64,000 nucleotides of DNA from Chiloscyllium plagiosum (taxonomy: Eukaryota), in NCBI RefSeq assembly GCF_004010195.1, contig NC_057718.1, positions 96,495,765 through 96,559,764 on the forward strand. Reading direction: 5' to 3'. This document shows positions 25,858 through 45,740 of the stretch, in pieces; the stretch's first letter is position 1; every line of letters begins with the position of its first letter. Below the pieces are notes generated by a model. It saw only the letters and a program-made list of their open reading frames with translations, searched no databases and was not told where the DNA came from. A program made the translations under genes and the position numbers.

Positions 25858-27662
25858 CATCTCTTCCAACCGCCCCCTCGACCATGACCCCACCCCTATC
25901 ACCAAACCATCATCTCCCAGACCATACAGAACCTCATCACCTCAGGAGGTCTCCCACCCACAGCTTCCAACCTCATAGTCCGGGAACCCCGCACTGCCCG
26001 GTTCTACCTCCTTCCTAAAATCCACAAGCCTGAGCACCCTGGCCGACACATTGTCTCAGCATGCTCCTGCCCCACTGAGCTCATTTCTATCTACCTCAAC
26101 ACTATCCTATCCTCCCCGAGTCCAGGAACTCCCCACATACATTTGAGACACCACCCACGCCCTCCACCTCCTCCAAGACTTCCGTTTCCCCGGTCCCCAA
26201 TGTCTCATCTTCACCATGGATATCCAATCCCTCTACACCTCCATCCGCCATGACCAGGGCCTCCAAGCCCTCCATTTTTTCCTCTCCAGATGTCCCCAAC
26301 AGTACCCTTACACCGACACCCTCATTCGTTTGGCCGAACTGGTCCTCACCCTTAACAATTTCTCCTTCGAATCCTCCCACTTCCTCCAGACCAAAGGGGT
26401 AGCCATGGGCACCTGTATGGGTCCCAGCTATGCCTGTCTCTTTGTTGGCTACGTAGAACAGTCGATCTTCTGTAATTACACTGGCACCACTCCCCACCTC
26501 TTCCTCCACTACATTGATGACTGCATTGGCGCCACCTCGTGCTCCCGCGAGGAGGTTGAGCAACTCATCAACTTCACCAACACATTCCACCCTGACCTTA
26601 AATTCACCCGGACCATCTCTGACACCTCCCTCCCCATCCTGGACCTNNNNNNNNNNNNNNNNNNNNNNNNNNNNNNNNNNNNNNNNNNNNNNNNNNNNNN
26701 NNNNNNNNNNNNNNNNNNNNNNNNNNNNNNNNNNNNNNNNNNNNNNNNNNNNNNNNNNNNNNNNNNNNNNNNNNNNNNNNNNNNNNNNNNNNNNNNNNNN
26801 NNNNNNNNNNNNNNNNNNNNNNNNNNNNNNNNNNNNNNNNNNNNNNNNNNNNNNNNNNNNNNNNNNNNNNNNNNNNNNNNNNNNNNNNNNNNNNNNNNNN
26901 NNNNNNNNNNNNNNNNNNNNNNNNNNNNNNNNNNNNNNNNNNNNNNNNNNNNNNNNNNNNNNNNNNNNNNNNNNNNNNNNNNNNNNNNNNNNNNNNNNNN
27001 NNNNNNNNNNNNNNNNNNNNNNNNNNNNNNNNNNNNNNNNNNNNNNNNNNNNNNNNNNNNNNNNNNNNNNNNNNNNNNNNNNNNNNNNNNNNNNNNNNNN
27101 NNNNNNNNNNNNNNNNNNNNNNNNNNNNNNNNNNNNNNNNNNNNNNNNNNNNNNNNNNNNNNNNNNNNNNNNNNNNNNNNNNNNNNNNNNNNNNNNNNNN
27201 NNNNNNNNNNNNNNNNNNNNNNNNNNNNNNNNNNNNNNNNNNNNNNNNNNNNNNNNNNNNNNNNNNNNNNNNNNNNNNNNNNNNNNNNNNNNNNNNNNNN
27301 NNNNNNNNNNNNNNNNNNNNNNNNNNNNNNNNNNNNNNNNNNNNNNNNNNNNNNNNNNNNNNNNNNNNNNNNNNNNNNNNNNNNNNNNNNNNNNNNNNNN
27401 NNNNNNNNNNNCCTCCTCCCTGACCTATCACCTTCATCCCCTCCCCCAGTCACCTATTGTACTCTATGCTACTTTCTCACCACCCTCACCCTCCTCCAGC
27501 TTATCTCTCCACGCTTCAAGGCCTCTGCCTGTATTCCTGATGAAGGGCTTTTGCCCAAAACGTTGATTTTACTGCTCCTCGGATGCTGCCTGAACTGCTG
27601 TGCTCTTCCAGCACCACTAATCCAGAATCTGGTTTCCAGCATCTGCAGTCATTGTTTTAACT
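25858..27662 (+). mobile_element. 5'-truncated Penelope-like retroelement (RT) inserted into an HE1 SINE; spans assembly gap 26647-27411
   Basis: FYLLPKIHK, MDIQSLYT, QTKGVAMG and HYIDD RT motifs; 3' terminal repeat with hammerhead core at 27537; TSD act(a/g)cagacaattta at 25843-25857 and 27663-27677; HE1 halves at ~25725-25857 and ~27663-27817. Confidence 0.92.
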
Positions 27663-28624: not shown

Positions 28625-29964
28625 AAAGGCAGAGAGCCTGAAGCGTGGAGAGATAAGCTAGAGGAGGGTAGGGGTGGGGATAGAGTAGCATAGAGTTGAA
28701 GGTGTTGGCCCCCTGTGTTCTCTGTCTATGCCATGATGTTTAGATTGATTCTAATCTAAAAAGTGAGATAACCGAGTTTTACATAAATTCATGCAGTTTT
28801 TGAGCTCAGAGTTCTACATGAATGTATGCAGTTTTTGAGCAAAGTNNNNNNNNNNNNNNNNNNNNNNNNNNNNNNNNNNNNNNNNNNNNNNNNNNNNNNN
28901 NNNNNNNNNNNNNNNNNNNNNNNNNNNNNNNNNNNNNNNNNNNNNNNNNNNNNNNNNNNNNNNNNNNNNNNNNNNNNNNNNNNNNNNNNNNNNNNNNNNN
29001 NNNNNNNNNNNNNNNNNNNNNNNNNNNNNNNNNNNNNNNNNNNNNNNNNNNNNNNNNNNNNNNNNNNNNNNNNNNNNNNNNNNNNNNNNNNNNNNNNNNN
29101 NNNNNNNNNNNNNNNNNNNNNNNNNNNNNNNNNNNNNNNNNTCTGACACGTCTTGCAGCGTCCACCGTGACAGGGTTGTATGGAGTTGTCCTGAGAGCCG
29201 GGCAGTTTGCTACGAACAATGATCTGTTTGAGGTTTGGTGGTTGTTTAAAGGTAAGTAGTGGAGGTGTGGGGAAGGTCTTGGTGAGGTGCTCATCCTCAT
29301 TGATAATGTGTTTCAGGTCACGAAGAACATGGCGAAAGTGGCCGAGCGGGTTGGGGTGAATTTATACGGGGGGGCTAACTTTGTACACCCTAGTCCAACA
29401 TCGGCATCTCCAAATCAAGATATCTGGTCGACGTGGAGGAGTTGGACCGAAGGGTCTGATTCCCCATGCTGTACATCTCGATGACTCTATGAGAAGGGTC
29501 AAGCCATTTCGAATGAAGATGAGGAGGGATTTTTTTTTCACTCAGGTGGAGAACTTTTGGAATTCTCTACCCAAGGTGACTGTTCAAGAAACAGGATGAT
29601 AGATTTCCAGATCTTGATGGTGTCATGGAGTATGGAAATAGCGCACGAAAATGGCATATAATTAGGTGATCAACCATAATCCAATTGAATGGCAGAACCG
29701 ACAGGGACTGACTGGACCAATTTTGCTCCTTTGTCCTTACAGTCCTACAAGTATTCCTTGTGCCTGTTCATATTCATTGATCCAACCAATGGGCTCACGC
29801 GTCGGAAATATTCTGTCCCGATGGATTGGCACTGCTAGGTTCCATAGCCATTTAAACTTTTCAATACCATTTTGCACTGGGTGTTTGGGAAGTGGGTTCA
29901 GGGGAAGCAATAGCCCATTGCATAAATGAAAACAATTGTAAATCATTTATTCAACTGCAAAGAG

Positions 29965-36089: not shown

Positions 36090-36453
36090 TAAGTGGAAGT
36101 GCGCAGTTTCACTAAGGAACGCAGAAGCTTCTAACCTCTGTCTTGCTGGACAAAGTTGTGCCCGGCGTCATAATAAACTGAAATCTTGCCGAAGCAGACC
36201 ACATTCCTTTTGATTATTAGACCGATCGTAGAATCAAGAGACCCCTCCCAGGGTGTTGAGATCTTCAGTATTGGCAATGAAAACCCTGGCAGCAAACCAT
36301 GATGCCCTGGTCCTCTTATTAGGCTCAGCTCCAATATAAACGTTGAAACGGCAGGCCCAGGCAGGGTTGCTCAATACGCAGAGCAGCCGGAGATCAGAAG
36401 GCCGAAGACTGCCCCACAGGAAAGCTAACCAAGGGCAGTCTGACCAGTACACC
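36090..36453 (+). promoter_or_regulatory. Candidate promoter/5'UTR of the IL7-like gene with an IRF-E-like motif
   Basis: aaactgaaa at 36175-36183, ~270 nt upstream of the ATG; agtttcact near 36105; ccaatataaa at 36331-36340; locally more CpG. Confidence 0.4.
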
Positions 36454-36463
36454 ATGTGGACCA
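36454..36463 (+). pseudogene. IL7-like candidate exon 1 coding part (ATG TGG ACC A|gt)
   Basis: Kozak-like caccATG with exactly 10 coding nt before a GT, the phase-1 arrangement recalled for mammalian IL7 exon 1. It lies in a locally CpG-richer, non-repeat region. The donor gtgcct is weak. Confidence 0.45.
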
Positions 36464-37825
36464 GTGCCTGGAGCTGTGTTGGGTACCCGGGGACCGGAGG
36501 GTGTGGGGGGAGTCGAGTTGTCTAATCACCAATTTTTATTGTGCGTTGTTTTTGGCTACGTTGTGTTTTGTAGACTGCTTTCTCTTGTGCCTGGGTGCGG
36601 GCGATGTGTGAAGTGTTTGAAATTATATATTGTGGAATTTTGCCTGCTGTAGACATTACCCTGAGGGGCTGAAACAAACTCCTCTGCGGACTTTAGTCCT
36701 TGTGGTACCTTCTAAAAGGAGAGCGAGCTGAGTGAAAACTCCATTTGTTTTATGTCGTGTTGTTGTTTTGTGAGATTTCGGGCACCCCATGGTTGTGTCC
36801 TTGTTTCTCTTGTGTATTGTTAATGCTGCATTGTATTTTGCATAACTATGAATAAGAAAGAAATTGAAGTGTTCATTAATGCACAGACACTGCGCACAAT
36901 CATTAAGGAGAACACATCGACATGCAGTTGTGACATTTGCGAAGAGTGCAATTTACTGAAAAGGCCCTGTTTAATGTTGTGTCTATTGTCGAGAAAAGTA
37001 TTGGACCTGTCTTCTTGAGGAAGGAAAATGTGGAGGAGTAAATTGATAAAAACCTTTAAAATTAACAAAAACAAGGGATTTGTTCAAGTGAACGTGGAGA
37101 ATGTGTTTCCACATCTGGAAAGGGGTGTGATTAGAACCATGAATATGGGGCAGACGTTCATAAGTGTAGTCAGGAAGTCCGCTGTCAGCTCTTGGACCGA
37201 GTGTTTAAGAGAAAGCTGGACAGAAACAAGAGAAGAAGGAACAGGAGGACATGTTGATGGGTTGAGGCAAGGAAGGAGATTTGTGTTGGACATTGCCATT
37301 GGCATGAAACATTTCACTTGAATCCATTGTGTTGCTGCTCACTGAGGGAGTGTGAGTCACCATGGTAACATGCATGTTTGACATGGAGCAGTCTGGAGTT
37401 ATAGACAGTGATGATGGATTTTCCAAAGCCCTTGGTTGACCATGACTCAGCATCTCTCTTACTGCCTGTATTGGAAGAACTTGCACATGACACGCACCCT
37501 TCATCTTCCTTGCCTATCAGGTCCTGGAGCAGGGTTTGGAACCCGGAGCTTCTAATGCAGAGGTGGGAAGACCTCTTCGGCACATGCAGTACATTCAATT
37601 TAAGCTCAGTTTTGGAGCAACACAAACATAGATTTGAGTTTGCACAAATATGCAACATGGGTGACAAGTGTGGCTATGGAAAAGGGGACAACTAGGTCCA
37701 AGAGGGCACACATGACAGGGTACACCGAGGGATGCACCACTTAAAATGCAGCACTTTTAGCTGACTATTTATGAGGCCATTTTGTACATAAAGATGTCAG
37801 TAATAGTTGTAAGAGGCACAAAAAA

Positions 37826-38377
37826 ATGGGGAATTGTATCCGAAACATTTTGGCTCTGGTGCTTTTGCTATTTGTGCTCTTGACCTTCTGCCAATCGGAA
37901 GTTTCTCTCTGGCTACTCTGCCTGTGATTGTGAACAGTCTCCTCACAAGCTTCTCTTCTCTCAAGAGCTTGGCTCTTGTTTCTTCAAACTGTCCTTCATT
38001 TCTGCAGAACAGCCTACAACGGGCAGCACGGTGCCTCAGTGGTTAGCACTGCTGCCTCACAGCACAGGGACTGGGGCTTGATTCCACCCTCGGGCGTCTG
38101 TGTGGAGTCTGCACGTTATCTCTGCGTCTGTGCAGTTTCCTCAGCTGCTGTGGTTTCCTCCCCCAGTCCAAAGATGTGCAGGTTAGGTAGATTGGCCATG
38201 CTAAATTGCTCACAGTGACCAGGGATGGGTGGGTTAGCCTTGGGAAATGCAGGGTGATCGGGTAGGGGATTGGGTCTGAACAGGCCGCTCTTTGAAGGGC
38301 TAGTGTGGACTCTATGGGCTGAATGGCCTGCTTCCATACTGTAAGGATTCCATGAACAGAAAATTGACAGATTAGGG
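37826..38377 (+). pseudogene. IL7-like exon 2 remnant (signal peptide and helix A), interrupted by an HE1 SINE
   Basis: MGNCIRNILALVLLLFVLLTFCQS from 37826. A shifted frame reads GYSACDCEQ...SFISAEQ (37911-38012; cf. SSDCDIE). After the SINE it reads KIDRLG (38360-38377; cf. SIDQLL). No intact acceptor AG. Confidence 0.6.
38021..38353 (+). mobile_element. HE1 SINE inside IL7-like exon 2
   Basis: Full HE1; possible short TSD gaacag at 38007 and 38354. Confidence 0.88.
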
Positions 38378-38766
38378 TTACTGCACTTTCTGATGCTTTC
38401 AGTTTCTCCATTTGAATGTATTTAGGTCTTTGCATTTGCAGACTTCCACAGCTTATTAGTATTCTGTCAGCAATCTTCCTTCCCTTTGCAAATGGCATCC
38501 TGCAGAAAGTCTGTGGGGGAAGAGAACAGAGACAATTTTTGCCTCACTACATTATTACCTCTTTATCATTAGCTGTGACCCATGCCACATACTTCAGCAA
38601 ATTGATTCTGCGATGGGAGAGTAACTGGTAGCTCTTTCATTTTAATTGGTGGGTCAAGGGTCATAAACTTTGGAATTCCATATTAAATTTGATCAAAACA
38701 CAGCGTTTCTCCGGTCAACGTTACTTAGCACTGTCTCATTCCAAAAATTCTGAGTCTCTGATACAG

Positions 38767-38871
38767 TACGATTAGAAGCAAAGATGTAGAGACCCATTTT
38801 TGCGCATTGTTGAAGATGTGACCACCAAACAAGAAGCATTCAGGTTACCATATAGAGCCTCAAGCCTTGAA
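38767..38871 (+). pseudogene. IL7-like candidate exon 3
   Basis: gatacag|...gaa|gtttgt, 105 nt, phase 0/0, reading YD*KQRCRDPFLRIVEDVTTKQEAFRLPYRASSLE with one TAG. Assigned by position; sequence similarity is weak. Confidence 0.4.
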
Positions 38872-39081
38872 GTTTGTTTAAGCTGTGATTTTAGAAGTTA
38901 AATGATTTTATGTTATTTGTATATTATAGTAACAAGTGTGCTTCTTCTTCTCTGACGTATTTATGAGTTTTCTTCTAATAATTTTGTCCCGTGGTTCCAC
39001 AGCAGGGACCCTCGATACTATTGTACTGAATCATTTTGCTAGATACTAAACGTGACTTAACGTTTCCTCTGTTTCTTTCAG

Positions 39082-39225
39082 TGTAAATGGGATCTTTCTC
39101 CAGAATTGTGCAAGAAAGCTAAACAGACAGTGAAAATGTTTTGCTGCTTCCACGTAATTAACTACAAAATGAAAACGCCCTAATCTGATTGCAGCCAAAC
39201 ATTACTGTTTCCTTGTACACTCCAG
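39082..39225 (+). pseudogene. IL7-like exon 4 remnant (helices B-C)
   Basis: Strong acceptor tttcctctgtttctttcag. Reads VNGIFLQNCARKL, then a 1-nt frameshift at ~39121, then KQTVKMFCCFHVINYKMKTP*SDCSQTLLFPCTLQ with TAA at 39181. Confidence 0.75.
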
Positions 39226-39474
39226 TTACAGCTTTGGATGCCTCCCAGTGCTTTTGCCTGGTCAGGTTTTCTTTATCAGTCATACTTCTGCATAGGGGCC
39301 TGGGACACCTTACCACTGTCACAAAGCAAATGAACAAGAGGAGAACATTCAGCCCCTCAAATCATTCCACCGCTCAAGGAGATGATAGCTTCCATTCTTG
39401 GCTCCACATCCCTTTGCACTCTTGGCCAATAAACATCTACCATTCTCACATTTAAAAGCTATCTGAACTTTATA

Positions 39475-40153
39475 GAGGTAGACAACCCTTTATCTGAAAT
39501 CCTAAAATCCGAAAAGCTCCAGAGTCTGAAGGCTTTTTTGTGAAGTTGTTTTTCTCATTAACGTGGTTGTTTGGCGTGCAAACAGTTAACCCAAGTCATA
39601 GAGTCATAGAGATGTACAGCATGGAAACAGACCCTTCAGTCCAACCCGTCCATGCCGACCAGATATCCCAACCCAATCTAGTCCCACCTGCCAGAACCTG
39701 GCCCATATCCCTCCAAACCCTTCCTATTCATATACCCATCCAAATGCCTCTTAAATGTTGCAATTGTACCAGCCTCCACCACTTCCTCTGGCAGCTCATT
39801 CCATACACGTACCACCCTCTGTGTGAGAAAGTTGCCCGGAGGATTTTTTTTTATATCTTTCCCCTTTCATCCTAAACCTATGCCCTCTAGTTCTGGGCTC
39901 CCTGACCCCTGGGAAAAGACTTTGTCTATTTACCCTATCCATGCCCCTCATAAAGATGTAACGTGTGGGGGCGTGACCCAGCACTGGCAGGCCTCAATTC
40001 TGTCTCAAGGTCCGTTTTGTCATGAGTCATGCTCCTCCGGTAAGATTTTTAAAAATTTCACCATCAAACTGTCACTTATTCTGAAATTCGAAAAATTCTG
40101 AATTCTGAAAACCAGCTGGTCCCAGGCATTTTGGATAAAGGATGGTGCACCTG
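39475..40153. mobile_element. Tc1/mariner Tigger-like MITE interrupted by a CR1 (~39595-39950, -)
   Basis: Imperfect TIRs aggtagacaaccctttatctgaaat / attttggataaaggatggtgcacct. The right end resembles the recalled MER46/Tigger4 terminus. Confidence 0.65.
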
Positions 40154-40754
40154 TGCTAGTATTGGTAGGAGAGTATGCCGCATAAAAAAACATTGACAAA
40201 GTCATCATATCTTTTTAGAGCATAGGGCTGCTGTCTTGTCAAAGAAGGAGATGACTGACGGTGGTTTAACCTGAGGGTCATCACGCCTCGGGCAAGGGGA
40301 GAGATTGAGAAGGAGAGTCCTTCATGGTAACCACAGTTGGTGTAGGAATTGAACCCACAATGTTGGCATCACAACCCAGCCATCAGACGAAACCAACTCC
40401 ATTGTTGGCTATATCTCTATAATGTGATGTAGAGCTACCTAAATTATCATCCTCATTCTTGATGAAGGGCTTATGACCAAAACGGCTATTCTCTGCTCCT
40501 CGGATGCTGCCTGACCTGCTGTGCTTTTCCAGTACCACACTCTCAACTCTAAGTTATCATCTGAATGGCTTCACTCTAGCTTTAAGGACATGCATAGTCG
40601 ATATGTTCGATCAACCTGTTCAGGTAAGTAGGTCTGGGACAAGTTGGATTTGAACGCAGTTTTGCATAATCCAGAGTTAGGGACACTACCACTGTGCCAC
40701 AAGATGCTATTGTGTTCTACAATGCAATAGGTGTGTATTAATGACATGATGATC

Positions 40755-41040
40755 ACAGAATCCCTACAGTGTGGAAGCAGGGCATTCAGCCTACCAGGTC
40801 CACACTGCCTTCCCCCCCCCCCCACCCCTCACCAAGAACATCCCTGCAACCCTGCATTTCCCATGGCCAATTCACCTAACCTGCGCATCTTGGGATTGTG
40901 GGAGGAGAGTGGAGTACTTGGAGGAAACCCACAAAGACACGGGGAGAATATGCTAACTCCACACAGACAGTTGCCTGAGGGTGGAATCGAACCCGGGTCC
41001 CTGATGCTGGGAGAAAGCAGCCATTTTGCCACCCAATGAT
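40755..41040 (-). mobile_element. HE1 SINE
   Basis: Reverse-complement HE1 core and tail. Other minus copies at ~43598-43836, ~51276-51572 and ~57945-58425. Confidence 0.85.
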
Positions 41041-41169
41041 GTATGAGAAAATGTAACGTTGACATCAACCATCACATGCTCTTGTGACTCTTCGAAGGGG
41101 ATTGAGTAACCTGTAGAGTTGTATTACAGAGACAGTATGATATGTAATGATGTGTAGATGGAAGAGTTT

Positions 41170-42432
41170 GTTCAAACTCACAAGAGTCAGGCAAAAGTTC
41201 ATTCAGAAAGTTAGAAGGTATGAGATACAGGGAAATTTGGCTGTCAGGATTCAGAACCGGCTGGCCGAAAGAAGACAGAAAATGGTAATGAATGGAAAGT
41301 ATTCTGCCTGGATGTCGGTGACAAGTGGTGTCCCACAGGGATCTGTTCTTGGGCCTCTGTTCTTGTTAGTTTTTATAAATGACTTGGATGAAGAAGTGGA
41401 AGGGTGGGTTAGTAAGTTTGCCGATGCCACAAAGGTCAGTGGTGTTGTAGATAGTGTCGAGGCTGTTGAAGGTTACAACATGACATCTGGAAAAGCACAG
41501 CAGGTCAGGCAGCATTTGAGGAGCAGGAGAATCGACGTTTTGGGCAAAAACCCTTCATCGGGAATGGGCCTTCATCCAGCATTTGCCTGGTTACAACATG
41601 ACGTTGACAAGATGCAGAGCTGGGTTGAGAAGTGGCGGTTGGAGTTCAACCTGGACAAATGCAAAGTGATTCATTTTGGAACATCAAATTTGAATGCTGA
41701 ATACAGGGTTAAAGACAAGATTCTTGGCAGTGTGGAGGAACAGCAGGATCTTGGGGTCCATATACATTGGTCTCTCAAAGTTGCCATCCAAGTTGATAGG
41801 GTTGTTAAGAAGGTGTATGGTGTTTTGGCTTTCACTAACAGGGGGAATGAGTTTAAGAGCTGCAAGGTTTTGCTGCAGCTGTATAGAACCCTGGTTAGAC
41901 CATACTTGGAATATTGTGTTCAGTTCTGGTCACCTCATTATAGGAAGGATATAGATGCTTTAGAGCGGGTGCAGAGGAGATTTACCAGGATGTTGCCTGG
42001 ATTGGAGGGCTTGTCTTATGAAGAGAGGTTGAGCGACCTCGGGCTTTTCACACTGGAGAGAAGAAGGAAGAGAGGTGACTTGATAGAGGTGTACAAGGTA
42101 ATGAGAGGCATCGATAGAGTAGATAGAGACTTTTCCCCAGGGCAGAAATGATTGTCACGAGGGGTCACAATTTTAAGGTGATTGGAGGAAGGTATAGGGG
42201 AAACATCAGAGGTAGGTTATTTACGCAGAGAGTAGTGGATGCGTGGAATGCACTGCCTGCGGTGATGGTAGAATCAGAGACATTAAGGACATTTAAGTGA
42301 CTGCTGGACAAGCACATGGAAAGCAGTAAATTGAGGGGTGTGTCGGTTAGGTTGATCTTAGATTAAGATAAACGCTCAGCATAACATCGTAGGCTGAAGG
42401 GCCTGTACTGTGCTGTATTGCTCTATGTTCTA
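41170..42432 (+). mobile_element. CR1/HER1 LINE, RT domain to 3' end, with nested Penelope fragment 41485-41588
   Basis: SGVPQGSVLGP, SKFADA (FADD mutated), LEYCVQFWSP; 14-nt TSD ggttacaacatgac at 41471 and 41589. Confidence 0.95.
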
Positions 42433-42782
42433 AAAGTCACTCTGAGGTAGTGCAAACACGGAGATGCAACACACTCGCAATGGAGACTTTAAACTCTAGA
42501 GGAGCTGTCTTAAACTCTGCAGGATGGAACCCTTAGTCCTTATTCCCATTGGCCTGTAACCCATTCAGGCTGATCAACTAAGGCTTGTATCAGTTATGAC
42601 AGATCAGACCAACATGTGCCCTTGACTTGGACTCGTGGAAACCAATGGTTTAAATGGTTTCTTTCCTTCTATCTTGTTAATTGTTTTTGAAACTCCAGTA
42701 GCCAAAAAGGGAAATGAAAGTTGTTGTTAAAAGTACATTTTAGCATCATATATAAATTGCTGCTATTTAGGGTTTTATTCAG

Positions 42783-43255
42783 AGAGTCACAGAGCACAGA
42801 AACAGACTTTCAGTCCAACCAGTCAATGCTGAACATAATCCCAAACTCAGCGAGTCCCACCTGCCTGCCCCTGGCCCAATCCCTCCACACCTTTCCTATT
42901 CATGTACTTATCCAAATGTCTTTTAAATAATGTAATTGTACCCATATCCACCACCTCCTCAGGAAGTTCACAGTCCAACCAGTCAATGCTGAACATAATC
43001 CCAAACTCAACGAGTCCCACCTGCCTGCTCCTGGCCCATATCCCTCCACACCTTTCCTATTCATGTACTTATCCAAATGTCTTTTAAATAATGTAATTGT
43101 ACCCATATCCACCATCTCCTCAGGAAGTTCATTTCACGCACGAACTACCCTCTGTGTAAAAAACTTGCCCCTCGTGTTTTCTTTTAACCTCTCTCCTCTC
43201 ACCTTAAAAATATGCCACTTAGTCTTGAAATCTCCTATCCTAGGGAAAAGACGTG
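42783..43255 (-). mobile_element. CR1 3' end with an internal 160-bp tandem duplication
   Basis: Unit starts at 42811 and 42971 (cagtccaaccagtcaatgctgaac). Confidence 0.9.
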
Positions 43256-43276
43256 ACAAAAAATATTTTCTATTAG

Positions 43277-43321
43277 TTGACTGAATTCCCCATGATGAAA
43301 AAGTGCAGAGTCAAGCGCAGG
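43277..43321 (+). pseudogene. IL7-like small C-D loop exon (45 nt)
   Basis: ttttctattag|...cagg|gtaagt, phase 0/0, open: LTEFPMMKKCRVKRR. Confidence 0.55.
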
Positions 43322-44411
43322 GTAAGTGAAGCAGCACACTGTGAGACTTAGAATCGCTTTTTAATTAGAATGATATGGGGTGTTTTTCTGCCTTCTCCAA
43401 GTGATATCAAACACCGCACCAGCTAACCAATATGTTTAAAGTAACACAAAGTAAAGATGTATTCATAAGTAGTGAAGGTGCAAAATGTAGGTTAATTTTA
43501 GAGTGCCAGTCAGGGCTAGCAGCTATTGTGCCAAAGCATGGACAGACAATGAAGGTGAATGACCCCAGTAAGAAATGGGGAAGACCCATGTAACACCACA
43601 TAATCCCATATAGTATGGAAGCAGGCCACTCAGCCCATACCAACCCTCCAAAGATCATCTCCCCTAACCCCTAACTGCATTTCCCATGGCCAATTCACCT
43701 AACCTGCACATCTTTAGACTATGGGAGGCAATCCACTCAGAGACAGGGAGAACATGCAAACCCCACACAGACAGTCACCCAAGGCAGGAATCGAACCTGG
43801 ATCTGTGAGGCAGCAGTGCTAACCACTGTGCCACTGTCTAGCTTAGCATCTGCTTGACCCAAACATCAATTCAACCTCGTAAACATTTTGTGCAACATGC
43901 ACACACAATCTTTACTGTCTCTAGAAGGACAGTACCAAGTCTCTTCATTGCAATTATTGGACAGAAACGCCATTATCAATCCACTGGAGGCCATTGTGCT
44001 GTGACCTTTGCCTAGTTAACGCCATTAGATTGTAAACTGATGATGAAAACATGCATCAACTCTTCTTTGAAAAGCATCTGGACAGACCAACATCAGCATC
44101 CCACATGCACAATAGAGTCACCAGTTGACAAATGGAACTGGACCCTAAGTGTTGAAATTTTATCCAGAATATTTCTTGGACATTTCAGTAGGGAAAGCAC
44201 ATAGGAGATCTTGAGATTTTAAAATTGCAATAAGGGAAATGCTGAAGCTAGAGGTGTTTCTTACACAGCTTGGTTAGTGTCCAGTTTGTCAAATGCAGTA
44301 ATCTTTCCTCAACTTTCCTGGAACAAAATTACATTTGGATAACACCAATAACCAAGCCGTGGTATTTACCAGGCTAACTTCACTCCTTCTGCACCTTCCC
44401 CACACACTCAG

Positions 44412-44475
44412 AGCAACTTGTGTGTAAGGCAAAGGAAACCTACAATTAGATCTACAGAAACAAGACAAGATTCGG
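44412..44475 (+). pseudogene. IL7-like additional C-D loop exon (64 nt)
   Basis: Branch-like gctaac, long pyrimidine tract and cag acceptor; donor cgg|gtaagt. Open (SNLCVRQRKPTIRSTETRQDS), phase 0/1, compatible with both neighbouring exons. Confidence 0.6.
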
Positions 44476-45122
44476 GTAAGTCCACAGTATGTATTTCAAA
44501 CCAAAAGCCCTAGAGGGCAGAGCTATCAATCACCTCGGAACAAGTACACAATGGAACATACAGTTGTATGGATTGACATGTCGAGCGGGCCCTCACAGAT
44601 CACCTGTTTACTAAGATCTGTAAATTTTTCAACTTAATTAATGCCTAACACAAAGCCTCTGTCAGTGATGGATATACACCATTCGGTTGGATCACAATGC
44701 TATTGTTTTAACACAACCTGATCTAGGTGTTTGTGCTTGGCAATGTACACATAGGTACCTCTGAACAAAAACGATAGCAGGTTGTTAGAACCAGCCAAAA
44801 GCTCACCATCTGTGGCCCAATGTCCATCACTGCCAGGTTTCTCGGTAGCAAGAAAGCTAATGTGATGGAACACAGAGTTCATTGACCTTTAAACTCCCAC
44901 CAGGTGGAAGTTTTGTGATCTTCCTGTGAGATTCTTCCAGGTCGGTGCCATGAGACAAAATGCAGGTTATTTCCAAATTGTTAAATTTCACTTTTTGTTT
45001 ATTACAAATGATCAGCCAATTTAAATTTACCACAGGACATCTGTCCATTCCATTCTATTAACCGTATCTTTTCCAATTTAAAATCGTATTCAAGCACTCT
45101 GTTTTCTTCTGAATGTTACCTA

Positions 45123-45313
45123 CAGGTTGTTCTGCTCTAACACACGTTTTTGTTAATGCGAATTCCCTGTAACCCTTATTGATGAATTGGGGACACTATT
45201 TCTAAAGTGTGAACTTTTAAACGTGCATCGCCATTTGAACACTTTCTCAAGCACAATTTTTCTATAATGCGGGGTTGCACAAGAACACAACCATTGCGTT
45301 ATAGGAATACTTG
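45123..45313. mobile_element. Tc1/mariner-type MITE
   Basis: TA|caggttgttct ... aatacttg|TA; related to 48561-48779 and 58748-58977. Confidence 0.6.
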
Positions 45314-45587
45314 TATTTCAAAATTGGCTAAAACTCTGTTATCATGGTAATGCATTTTAGGCGAGACCATGTCCTTAGTTGGAACTAGAAAGGCTACTAG
45401 CACCTGGTTTGTTGGAAAGATTGTCATTTTATTTAACATTCTTCTAATTATTTATATTATTAATTACAGCATGCAGTTGTACACGGAATCATCTCTCCCC
45501 CAGAGTCTGCTGTCTTCTGGTCTATTTCATCACTATTGATGTAATCTAACCATATATATCTTTGTGTATTAACCATTTACTCTACAG

Positions 45588-45740
45588 TTGAGGTACTAAT
45601 AGATAAGAGCTCCTGATGATTATGCATCCTACACTGAATGGTTCATAATTTGGCCACTTCCTGGCATTGTCTCACCTGACAAATTGCTTCGCAATATCAA
45701 ATTGTGCTTCATAGTGCAAAATAAACAGATCCATTTGTGT
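45588..45740 (+). pseudogene. IL7-like terminal exon (helix D and 3'UTR)
   Basis: tattaaccatttactctacag| acceptor, phase 1. Reads VEVLIDKSS**LCILH*MVHNLATSWHCLT* (last stop 45677-45679). The TGA at 45635 aligns with the Arg of human LKRLL, consistent with CGA>TGA. Confidence 0.75.

Follow-up and report, generated by a model that had tools for sequence, protein, structure and literature searches.

The window, a 64,000-nucleotide stretch of the bamboo shark Chiloscyllium plagiosum genome (contig C9, 96,495,765–96,559,764; positions below are counted from the window start), carries a decayed locus that is probably the remnant of a second gene of the interleukin-7 (IL-7) family. A sequence-only reading had recognized an apparently dead IL-7-like cytokine gene here from four colinear motifs, and all four are present in the sequence. 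Their human counterparts, as given there, agree with IL-7 in PDB 3di2; the signal peptide was not comparable, the deposited chain being without it. Our redrawn model, with tentative borders, has five putative exons named A–E (Table 1), in the order signal peptide, loop, helices B–C, RKP linker and helix D that is found in IL-7 (PF01415) of human (3di2), shark, chimaera, coelacanth and sturgeon.

Exon A opens at an in-frame ATG (37826) and reads M-x-N, as non-mammalian IL-7s begin; the hydrophobic stretch behind it, at 37835, is signal-peptide-like, a feature of low specificity. This region aligns with the IL-7 signal region in both IL-7 query placement and hhalign, and a candidate TATA-like element, TACATAAA, lies about 40 bases 5′ of the exon. 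The earlier model had started elsewhere, with an exon 1 at 36454 and a lost acceptor before the next exon. That exon 1 falls inside an interspersed repeat (40 other copies scored, 70–79% identity); its donor scores −4.3, and it is one of six ATG-N7-GT sites in 3 kb. The supposed lost acceptor lacks a pyrimidine tract (5 of 20 bases), and the start is better explained by the in-frame ATG.

Exon B ends in H.C...K, resembling IL-7 exon 3 (84 nt in shark IL7). It is the weakest of the five, placed at 38786 by 2 of 11 IL-7 queries; hhalign found no match for it or for the second half of exon C. Directly before the exon with GIFLQNCARKL (at 39089) stands a strong acceptor: the site at 39082 is one of seven among 4,209 plus-strand AG sites with a score above 8. 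Within exon C the LL..CT.Q motif is read in a different frame from GIFLQNCARKL, and the frameshift proposed for this exon locates near 39125. Exon D was absent from the earlier model and was found afterwards, at the expected place and in the right phase; its RKP basic linker has counterparts in human exon 5 and, in shark IL7, where the final exon begins. Exon E holds the LC.L...T.W motif at 45620, and the AATAAA signal claimed for the 3′ end is there at 45720.

Two GT–AG junctions (B–C, phase 2; D–E, phase 1) join in frame with IL-7-like residues on either side, and the B–C junction is equalled or bettered by 25 of 89,838 junctions, itself counted. The helix D tryptophan stands in IL-7 register, and cysteines do so too: one closes exon B, exon C has one near its beginning and one where it ends, and another lies in helix D. 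Of the other conserved cysteines, neither the first of the CxC motif nor the one preceding the Trp is present, and the first mature Cys is ambiguous. Exons A–C are single-copy DNA, and in the 44.3–45.8 kb region the 40 scored repeat matches (of 3,560 candidates) are confined to the intron. A further high-copy short repeat lies in this last intron (45110–45325), invisible to local self-comparison.

Table 1. Features of the putative IL-7-family remnant and its surroundings (window positions; exon borders from the redrawn model).
Feature	Position	Strand	Remarks
Interspersed repeat	36350..36875		holds exon 1 of the earlier model; outside the gene
Exon A (putative)	37826..~37971	+	ATG, signal-peptide-like stretch, presumed helix A; one or more frameshifts; GT donor absent where expected, which leaves the end uncertain
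High-copy short interspersed nuclear element (SINE)	38016..38357		most likely intronic; common to relatives B and C
Exon B (putative), 89 nt	38729..38817	+	weak AG acceptor; TGA 38759; weak GT donor 38818, phase 2
Exon C, 144 nt	39082..39225	+	strong acceptor, phase 2; helix B/C-like motifs; frameshift ~39125; TAA 39181; no GT donor at end
Long interspersed nuclear element (LINE) reverse-transcriptase fragment	41141..42432	+	in the long intron
Exon D, 64 nt	44412..44475	+	AG acceptor; strong GTAAGT donor; open frame; ends phase 1
Exon E	45588..45679	+	helix-D-like LC.L...W motif; starts phase 1, in frame with D; TGA 45614, 45617, 45635; terminal TGA 45677
AATAAA poly(A) signal	45720..45725	+	40 bases 3′ of the terminal stop

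Four of the five stops listed earlier as lesions (39181, 45614, 45617 and 45635) lie in the frames claimed for them; the fifth, 38773, is outside the frame that joins exon C, in which the stop of exon B is 38759. These five stops, frameshifts in A and C, and the lack of a GT donor after either of those exons are the disabling marks under the model. An insertion counted as a further lesion and labelled HE1 by the sequence-only reading is indeed a high-copy SINE, one that most likely sits in an intron.

Comparison with two relatives (B and C; contigs aligned over 37700–39590, thus exons A–C, with the differences of C seen in part) shows that the lesions are shared and are not assembly errors. 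Both relatives differ from the window by 3.4–4.9% over this stretch and carry the same SINE, and none of the four indels is exonic. Relative B is unchanged at both stops within the compared stretch, and its AG acceptor before exon C is mutated. The lesions are old, since the exons of two relatives at this distance are free of indels and the exon C acceptor of one is gone as well. There is no sign in relative B of purifying selection on exons A–C relative to introns (10 of 233 exon bases differ, against 24 of 880 intron bases, P = 0.21). Most of the changed codons read in these exons (7 of 11) alter the residue. The locus, if it was ever a gene, is dead and makes no protein today. RNA data are uninformative on expression: about 2% of one run gave no reads on exons A–C, and a single unspliced 166-base contig (depth 3.5) comes from a run only guessed to be RNA. 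Mammalian contamination was ruled out, the locus DNA and its SINE being present in two other species, as was a retrocopy, introns being present.

Loss of IL7 itself, the more radical option raised by the earlier reading, is refuted: an intact IL7 lies at C4:122,706,065–122,727,471, between a stathmin gene and ZC2HC1A (minus strand, ending near 122.797 Mb). Its exons (146, 84, 138 and 153 nt) are uninterrupted and have canonical splice sites. Names read from family matches place TPD52 at 122.13 Mb, a HEY-type gene at 122.29 Mb, stathmin at 122.31 Mb and PKI at 123.00 Mb. An exon scan of 200 kb of C4 located the IL-7 signal-peptide exon at 122,716,885, and a search with this exon returned seven shark proteins among eight candidates, one of them named interleukin-7-like and two, labelled Chiloscyllium plagiosum, 100% identical. 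Over an exon 2 query, other sharks' IL-7s are 86–94% identical. No other close IL7 copy was found by tblastn of the genome with shark IL-7. IL7 adjoins ZC2HC1A from sharks to humans, according to PMC6936713. Since ZC2HC1A and the intact IL7 are on C4 and the window is at C9:96.5 Mb, the window locus is not the IL7 orthologue. With IL7 intact, the immunity of this shark is unaffected by the dead locus, whose identity is uncertain. As an aside on annotation, the true IL7 carries the name ‘uncharacterized protein’ in C. plagiosum and several other sharks and rays; the two annotated C. plagiosum isoforms each lack one exon, and no full-length form was among the returned proteins.

The case for an IL-7-family origin is carried by chain tests under gene-structure rules, which set the exon B length and asked for an unbroken frame at the junctions, for a start codon or acceptor ahead of the signal peptide, and for a stop plus poly(A) signal after helix D. 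With 11 non-placental IL-7 queries (platypus was dropped as a near-duplicate of echidna), the locus reaches a mean score of 104.3 against a null of 87.9 ± 4.4, a value attained by 0 of 387 real and 1 of 2,231 simulated anchors; the Mobula query alone scores below the null mean. Shuffling residues within segments gives 86.9 ± 3.5, and none of 300 shuffled query sets reaches 104.3. By part, 1, 131, 7 and 0 of 300 shuffles reach the locus score, the 131 being those for the end motif of exon C, which thus does not exceed shuffles with non-placental queries. Helix D was placed at 45611 by 8 of the 11 queries and the signal peptide at 37835 by 6. Human IL-7, scored by hand under the same rules, gives about 149 (17 + 33 + 24 + 21 + 32, plus about 22 for the signal peptide), a value that is not tool output: it uses the PDB 3di2 alignment, BLOSUM62 values and a signal part borrowed from mammals. 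None of 28,798 null pairs reaches 130, and true shark IL7 scores 161–193. The motif chain exceeds chance as a chain, and only under gene-structure rules; single exons do not.

Exon sizes (89 against 84 nt and 144 against 138 nt), the M-x-N start, the C-x12-W spacing of helix D, shared with bony vertebrates, and compact 5′ exons followed by a long intron add to the likeness to IL-7, and the three-exon cluster, the exon order and the exon sizes resemble IL7 on C4 in particular. At the DNA level only exons D and C exceed most controls: similarity to shark IL7 is equalled by 14 of 600 control stretches for exon D, where it is in register, and by 23 of 600 for exon C. In hhalign, exon A (P = 0.009, probability 4.5%) and exon E (P = 0.008, probability 4.9%) align with IL-7. 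We consider a decayed second IL-7-family gene, separate from IL7 on C4, the best reading of the locus, with a probability of roughly 0.65; it is statistically weak, and homology to IL-7 is probable rather than proven.

Several results weigh against this reading. The sequence-only reading had looked to a significant IL-7 profile match, and none was obtained: the best value (P = 0.005) came from a hand-chosen read-through, the best of four variants, and Pfam IL7 matched 0 of 8 window pieces. This test is too strict, because intact shark IL-7 scores only 18.9–20.7 bits against the PF01415 cut-off of 26.8. Over the whole genome the Pfam IL7 and TSLP profiles gave chance-level matches only, none of them in the window; PDB searches with three window pieces returned no cytokine, tblastn of shark IL-7 against 36–46 kb returned no match, and the DNA of exons A, B and E is not similar to that of shark IL7. 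In a scan that allowed for frameshifts, an 18-sequence profile gave top chains of 65–77 bits, none at the locus, against 237 for true IL7. The IL-7s gathered for comparison span sharks, rays, chimaera, sturgeon, coelacanth, lungfish, amphibians, birds, monotremes and marsupials, with no placental sequence. Blind spliced alignment at three intron penalties left the locus at background. In an anchored profile test 40 of 275 real and 1,259 of 11,289 simulated acceptors scored as high, and in a loose BLOSUM chain with 12 queries between 4 and 277 of 386 anchors did so, depending on the query. The constrained rules were themselves chosen after the locus was seen, and likeness to human IL-7, a relative of the queries, was the reason for choosing the locus; with about 60 anchors per window, 1 in 2,231 becomes about 0.03 per window. 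The strongest matches are placental-specific residues missing in sharks, birds and marsupials, which is odd for an old paralogue; this surplus resemblance to placental IL-7 is most plausibly a product of selection added to weak homology. Intron phases disagree as well: shark IL7 introns are phase 0 and there is no D–E intron, in contrast to phase 2 at B–C and phase 1 at D–E here, although decay may have shifted the intron borders. Nor was synteny with an IL7, TSLP or IL9 locus found at the window; the flanking check proposed earlier leads to C4 for the IL7 neighbours, and the contigs carrying paralogues of these neighbours are C4, C3, C20 and C27, not C9.

The main rival reading is chance: the locus would be non-coding DNA, and its hydrophobic stretch, strong acceptor and few short motifs would match the arrangement of human IL-7 by coincidence. 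With three frames to choose from, frameshifts at no cost and stops allowed, many such chains can be assembled. No standard search and none of the looser chain tests lifts the locus above background, hhalign probabilities are below 5%, two of four donors are missing and two acceptors are weak, the best match is limited to one lineage, and the lack of constraint relative to B and C fits never-coding DNA as well as it fits a dead gene. We nevertheless regard coincidence as less likely than a dead gene, given the constrained chain test and query shuffles, the independent choice by most queries of the same signal-peptide and helix D places, and the discovery of exon D, with its strong donor and correct phase, after the first motifs had been named. 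The notion that the locus is IL7 itself, lost in this shark, draws on the resemblance to human IL-7 and nothing else; the intact gene with its canonical splice sites, conserved C4 locus and annotated isoforms makes it practically untenable.

It is improbable that the locus is a dead short-chain cytokine gene from an adjacent branch (TSLP-like, IL-9-like or an unnamed lineage) and not an IL-7 duplicate. Short-chain cytokine genes usually hold the signal peptide and helix A in their first coding exon. The locus likewise has no separate short exon 1, unlike IL7 on C4; the pattern of the IL-7 family is a short phase-1 first exon and phase-0 introns. TSLP (PF15216), the IL-7R-alpha/CRLF2 ligand, shares the IL-7-related short-chain plan, and its helix D is preceded by a basic stretch. 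Upstream of WDR36 exon 1 (C2:61,080,001–61,118,834, 38 kb that are half repeats and include 2.8 kb of N) no clear TSLP-like exons could be made out. IL-9 is described as missing from cartilaginous fish, through loss or because it has yet to be found (PMC6238376), and the same is said of IL-9 and TSLP in cartilaginous and other fish (PMC6238376, PMC4690019). Against such a branch, TSLP adjoins WDR36, which in this shark is on C2, and the window has no Pfam TSLP match. IL-9 belongs to the TGFBI/LECT2 neighbourhood, and TGFBI-like exons are on C14 and C6, not C9. The M-x-N start, RKP linker and LC.L...W spacing, moreover, are features of IL-7.

A second IL-7-family gene, then, would have comprised five coding exons spliced into the message for a secreted short-chain four-helix cytokine, exon A supplying its signal peptide and helix A, B the loop, C helices B–C, D the basic linker and E helix D. 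Its retained introns and its divergence, rather than synteny, point to an old DNA-level duplication, and the gene would have died before C. plagiosum split from relatives B and C. By analogy with the family, its product may have signalled through IL-7R-alpha with gamma-c or CRLF2 and JAK–STAT5. Unlike IL-7, the locus has at least five stops and two frameshifts and does not adjoin ZC2HC1A; it also has the linker in an exon of its own, and shows no tblastn similarity to IL-7 of the same genome. IL-7 is regarded as a single-copy gene. Zebrafish has a single il7 (PMC6936713), PMC7677710 makes no mention of IL7 in its main text, and literature searches, which covered few subscription journals and not all supplements, turned up no cartilaginous fish with a described second IL-7-like gene. 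If real, the locus is a new, previously undescribed member of the IL-7 family, albeit dead and statistically faint.

IL-15L sets a precedent, as an ancient paralogue in the gamma-c family that some vertebrates retain and others have lost (PMC3894449, bioRxiv 10.1101/644955); IL-15L belongs to the IL-2/15 branch and has intact copies, whereas no intact copy of the window locus is known. Zebrafish genetics predicts a further, still unfound cytokine acting via IL-7R-alpha and CRLF2 (PMC6936713). It is a speculative and rather doubtful extension that early jawed vertebrates had a further IL-7-family gene, by position neither IL7, TSLP nor IL9, which has died in bamboo-shark relatives but persists without annotation elsewhere among cartilaginous or bony fish, where it could be that ligand. 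A fossil paralogue, if true, would provide a genomic address for seeking a living copy in other species and make the missing-ligand question testable.

Protein searches returned no intact orthologue of the window locus. A word search with exon C gave no candidate, and MAFFT addition of window pieces to the IL-7 alignment stacked them on the signal peptide. HMMER with three shark IL-7s against 1.84 billion representatives gave 17 matches, none matching the window; the 14 new ones are named IL-7 or are uncharacterised ray proteins that align as IL-7. A word search with a nine-species IL-7 alignment yielded 13 matches, all named IL-7 and none placental. Nothing in 100 kb of the WDR36 region on C2 resembles the window pieces.

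Around the locus no neighbouring gene was identified in 204 kb, by an exon finder that showed WDR36 clearly on C2. Of the IL7-neighbour families, the sole matches on C9 are stathmin at 2.4 Mb and zf-C2HC at 5.2 Mb, 91–94 Mb from the locus; beyond these distant matches, C9 as an ohnologous partner of C4 is unsupported. Fasciclin exons, the only marker tried for the IL-9 neighbourhood, are on C14, C6, C18 and C19, with none on C9.

Among other features of the window, a repeat element at 42779–43252 carries within it a nearly perfect tandem duplication, about 150 bases long, and reverse-transcriptase-like retroelement fragments at 25888–26646 and 28789–29361 lie beside assembly gaps (26647–27411 and 28846–29141). 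About 26 kb before the window, on the minus strand, a 153-nt open stretch has good splice signals and matches unnamed Atlas clusters at 0.89–0.90; one Atlas neighbour has an integrase-type family, so it is possibly a transposon piece. A single-copy 207-nt exon-like stretch without Pfam, PDB or Atlas match, also on the minus strand and about 66 kb after the window, could belong to a gene neighbouring the locus.

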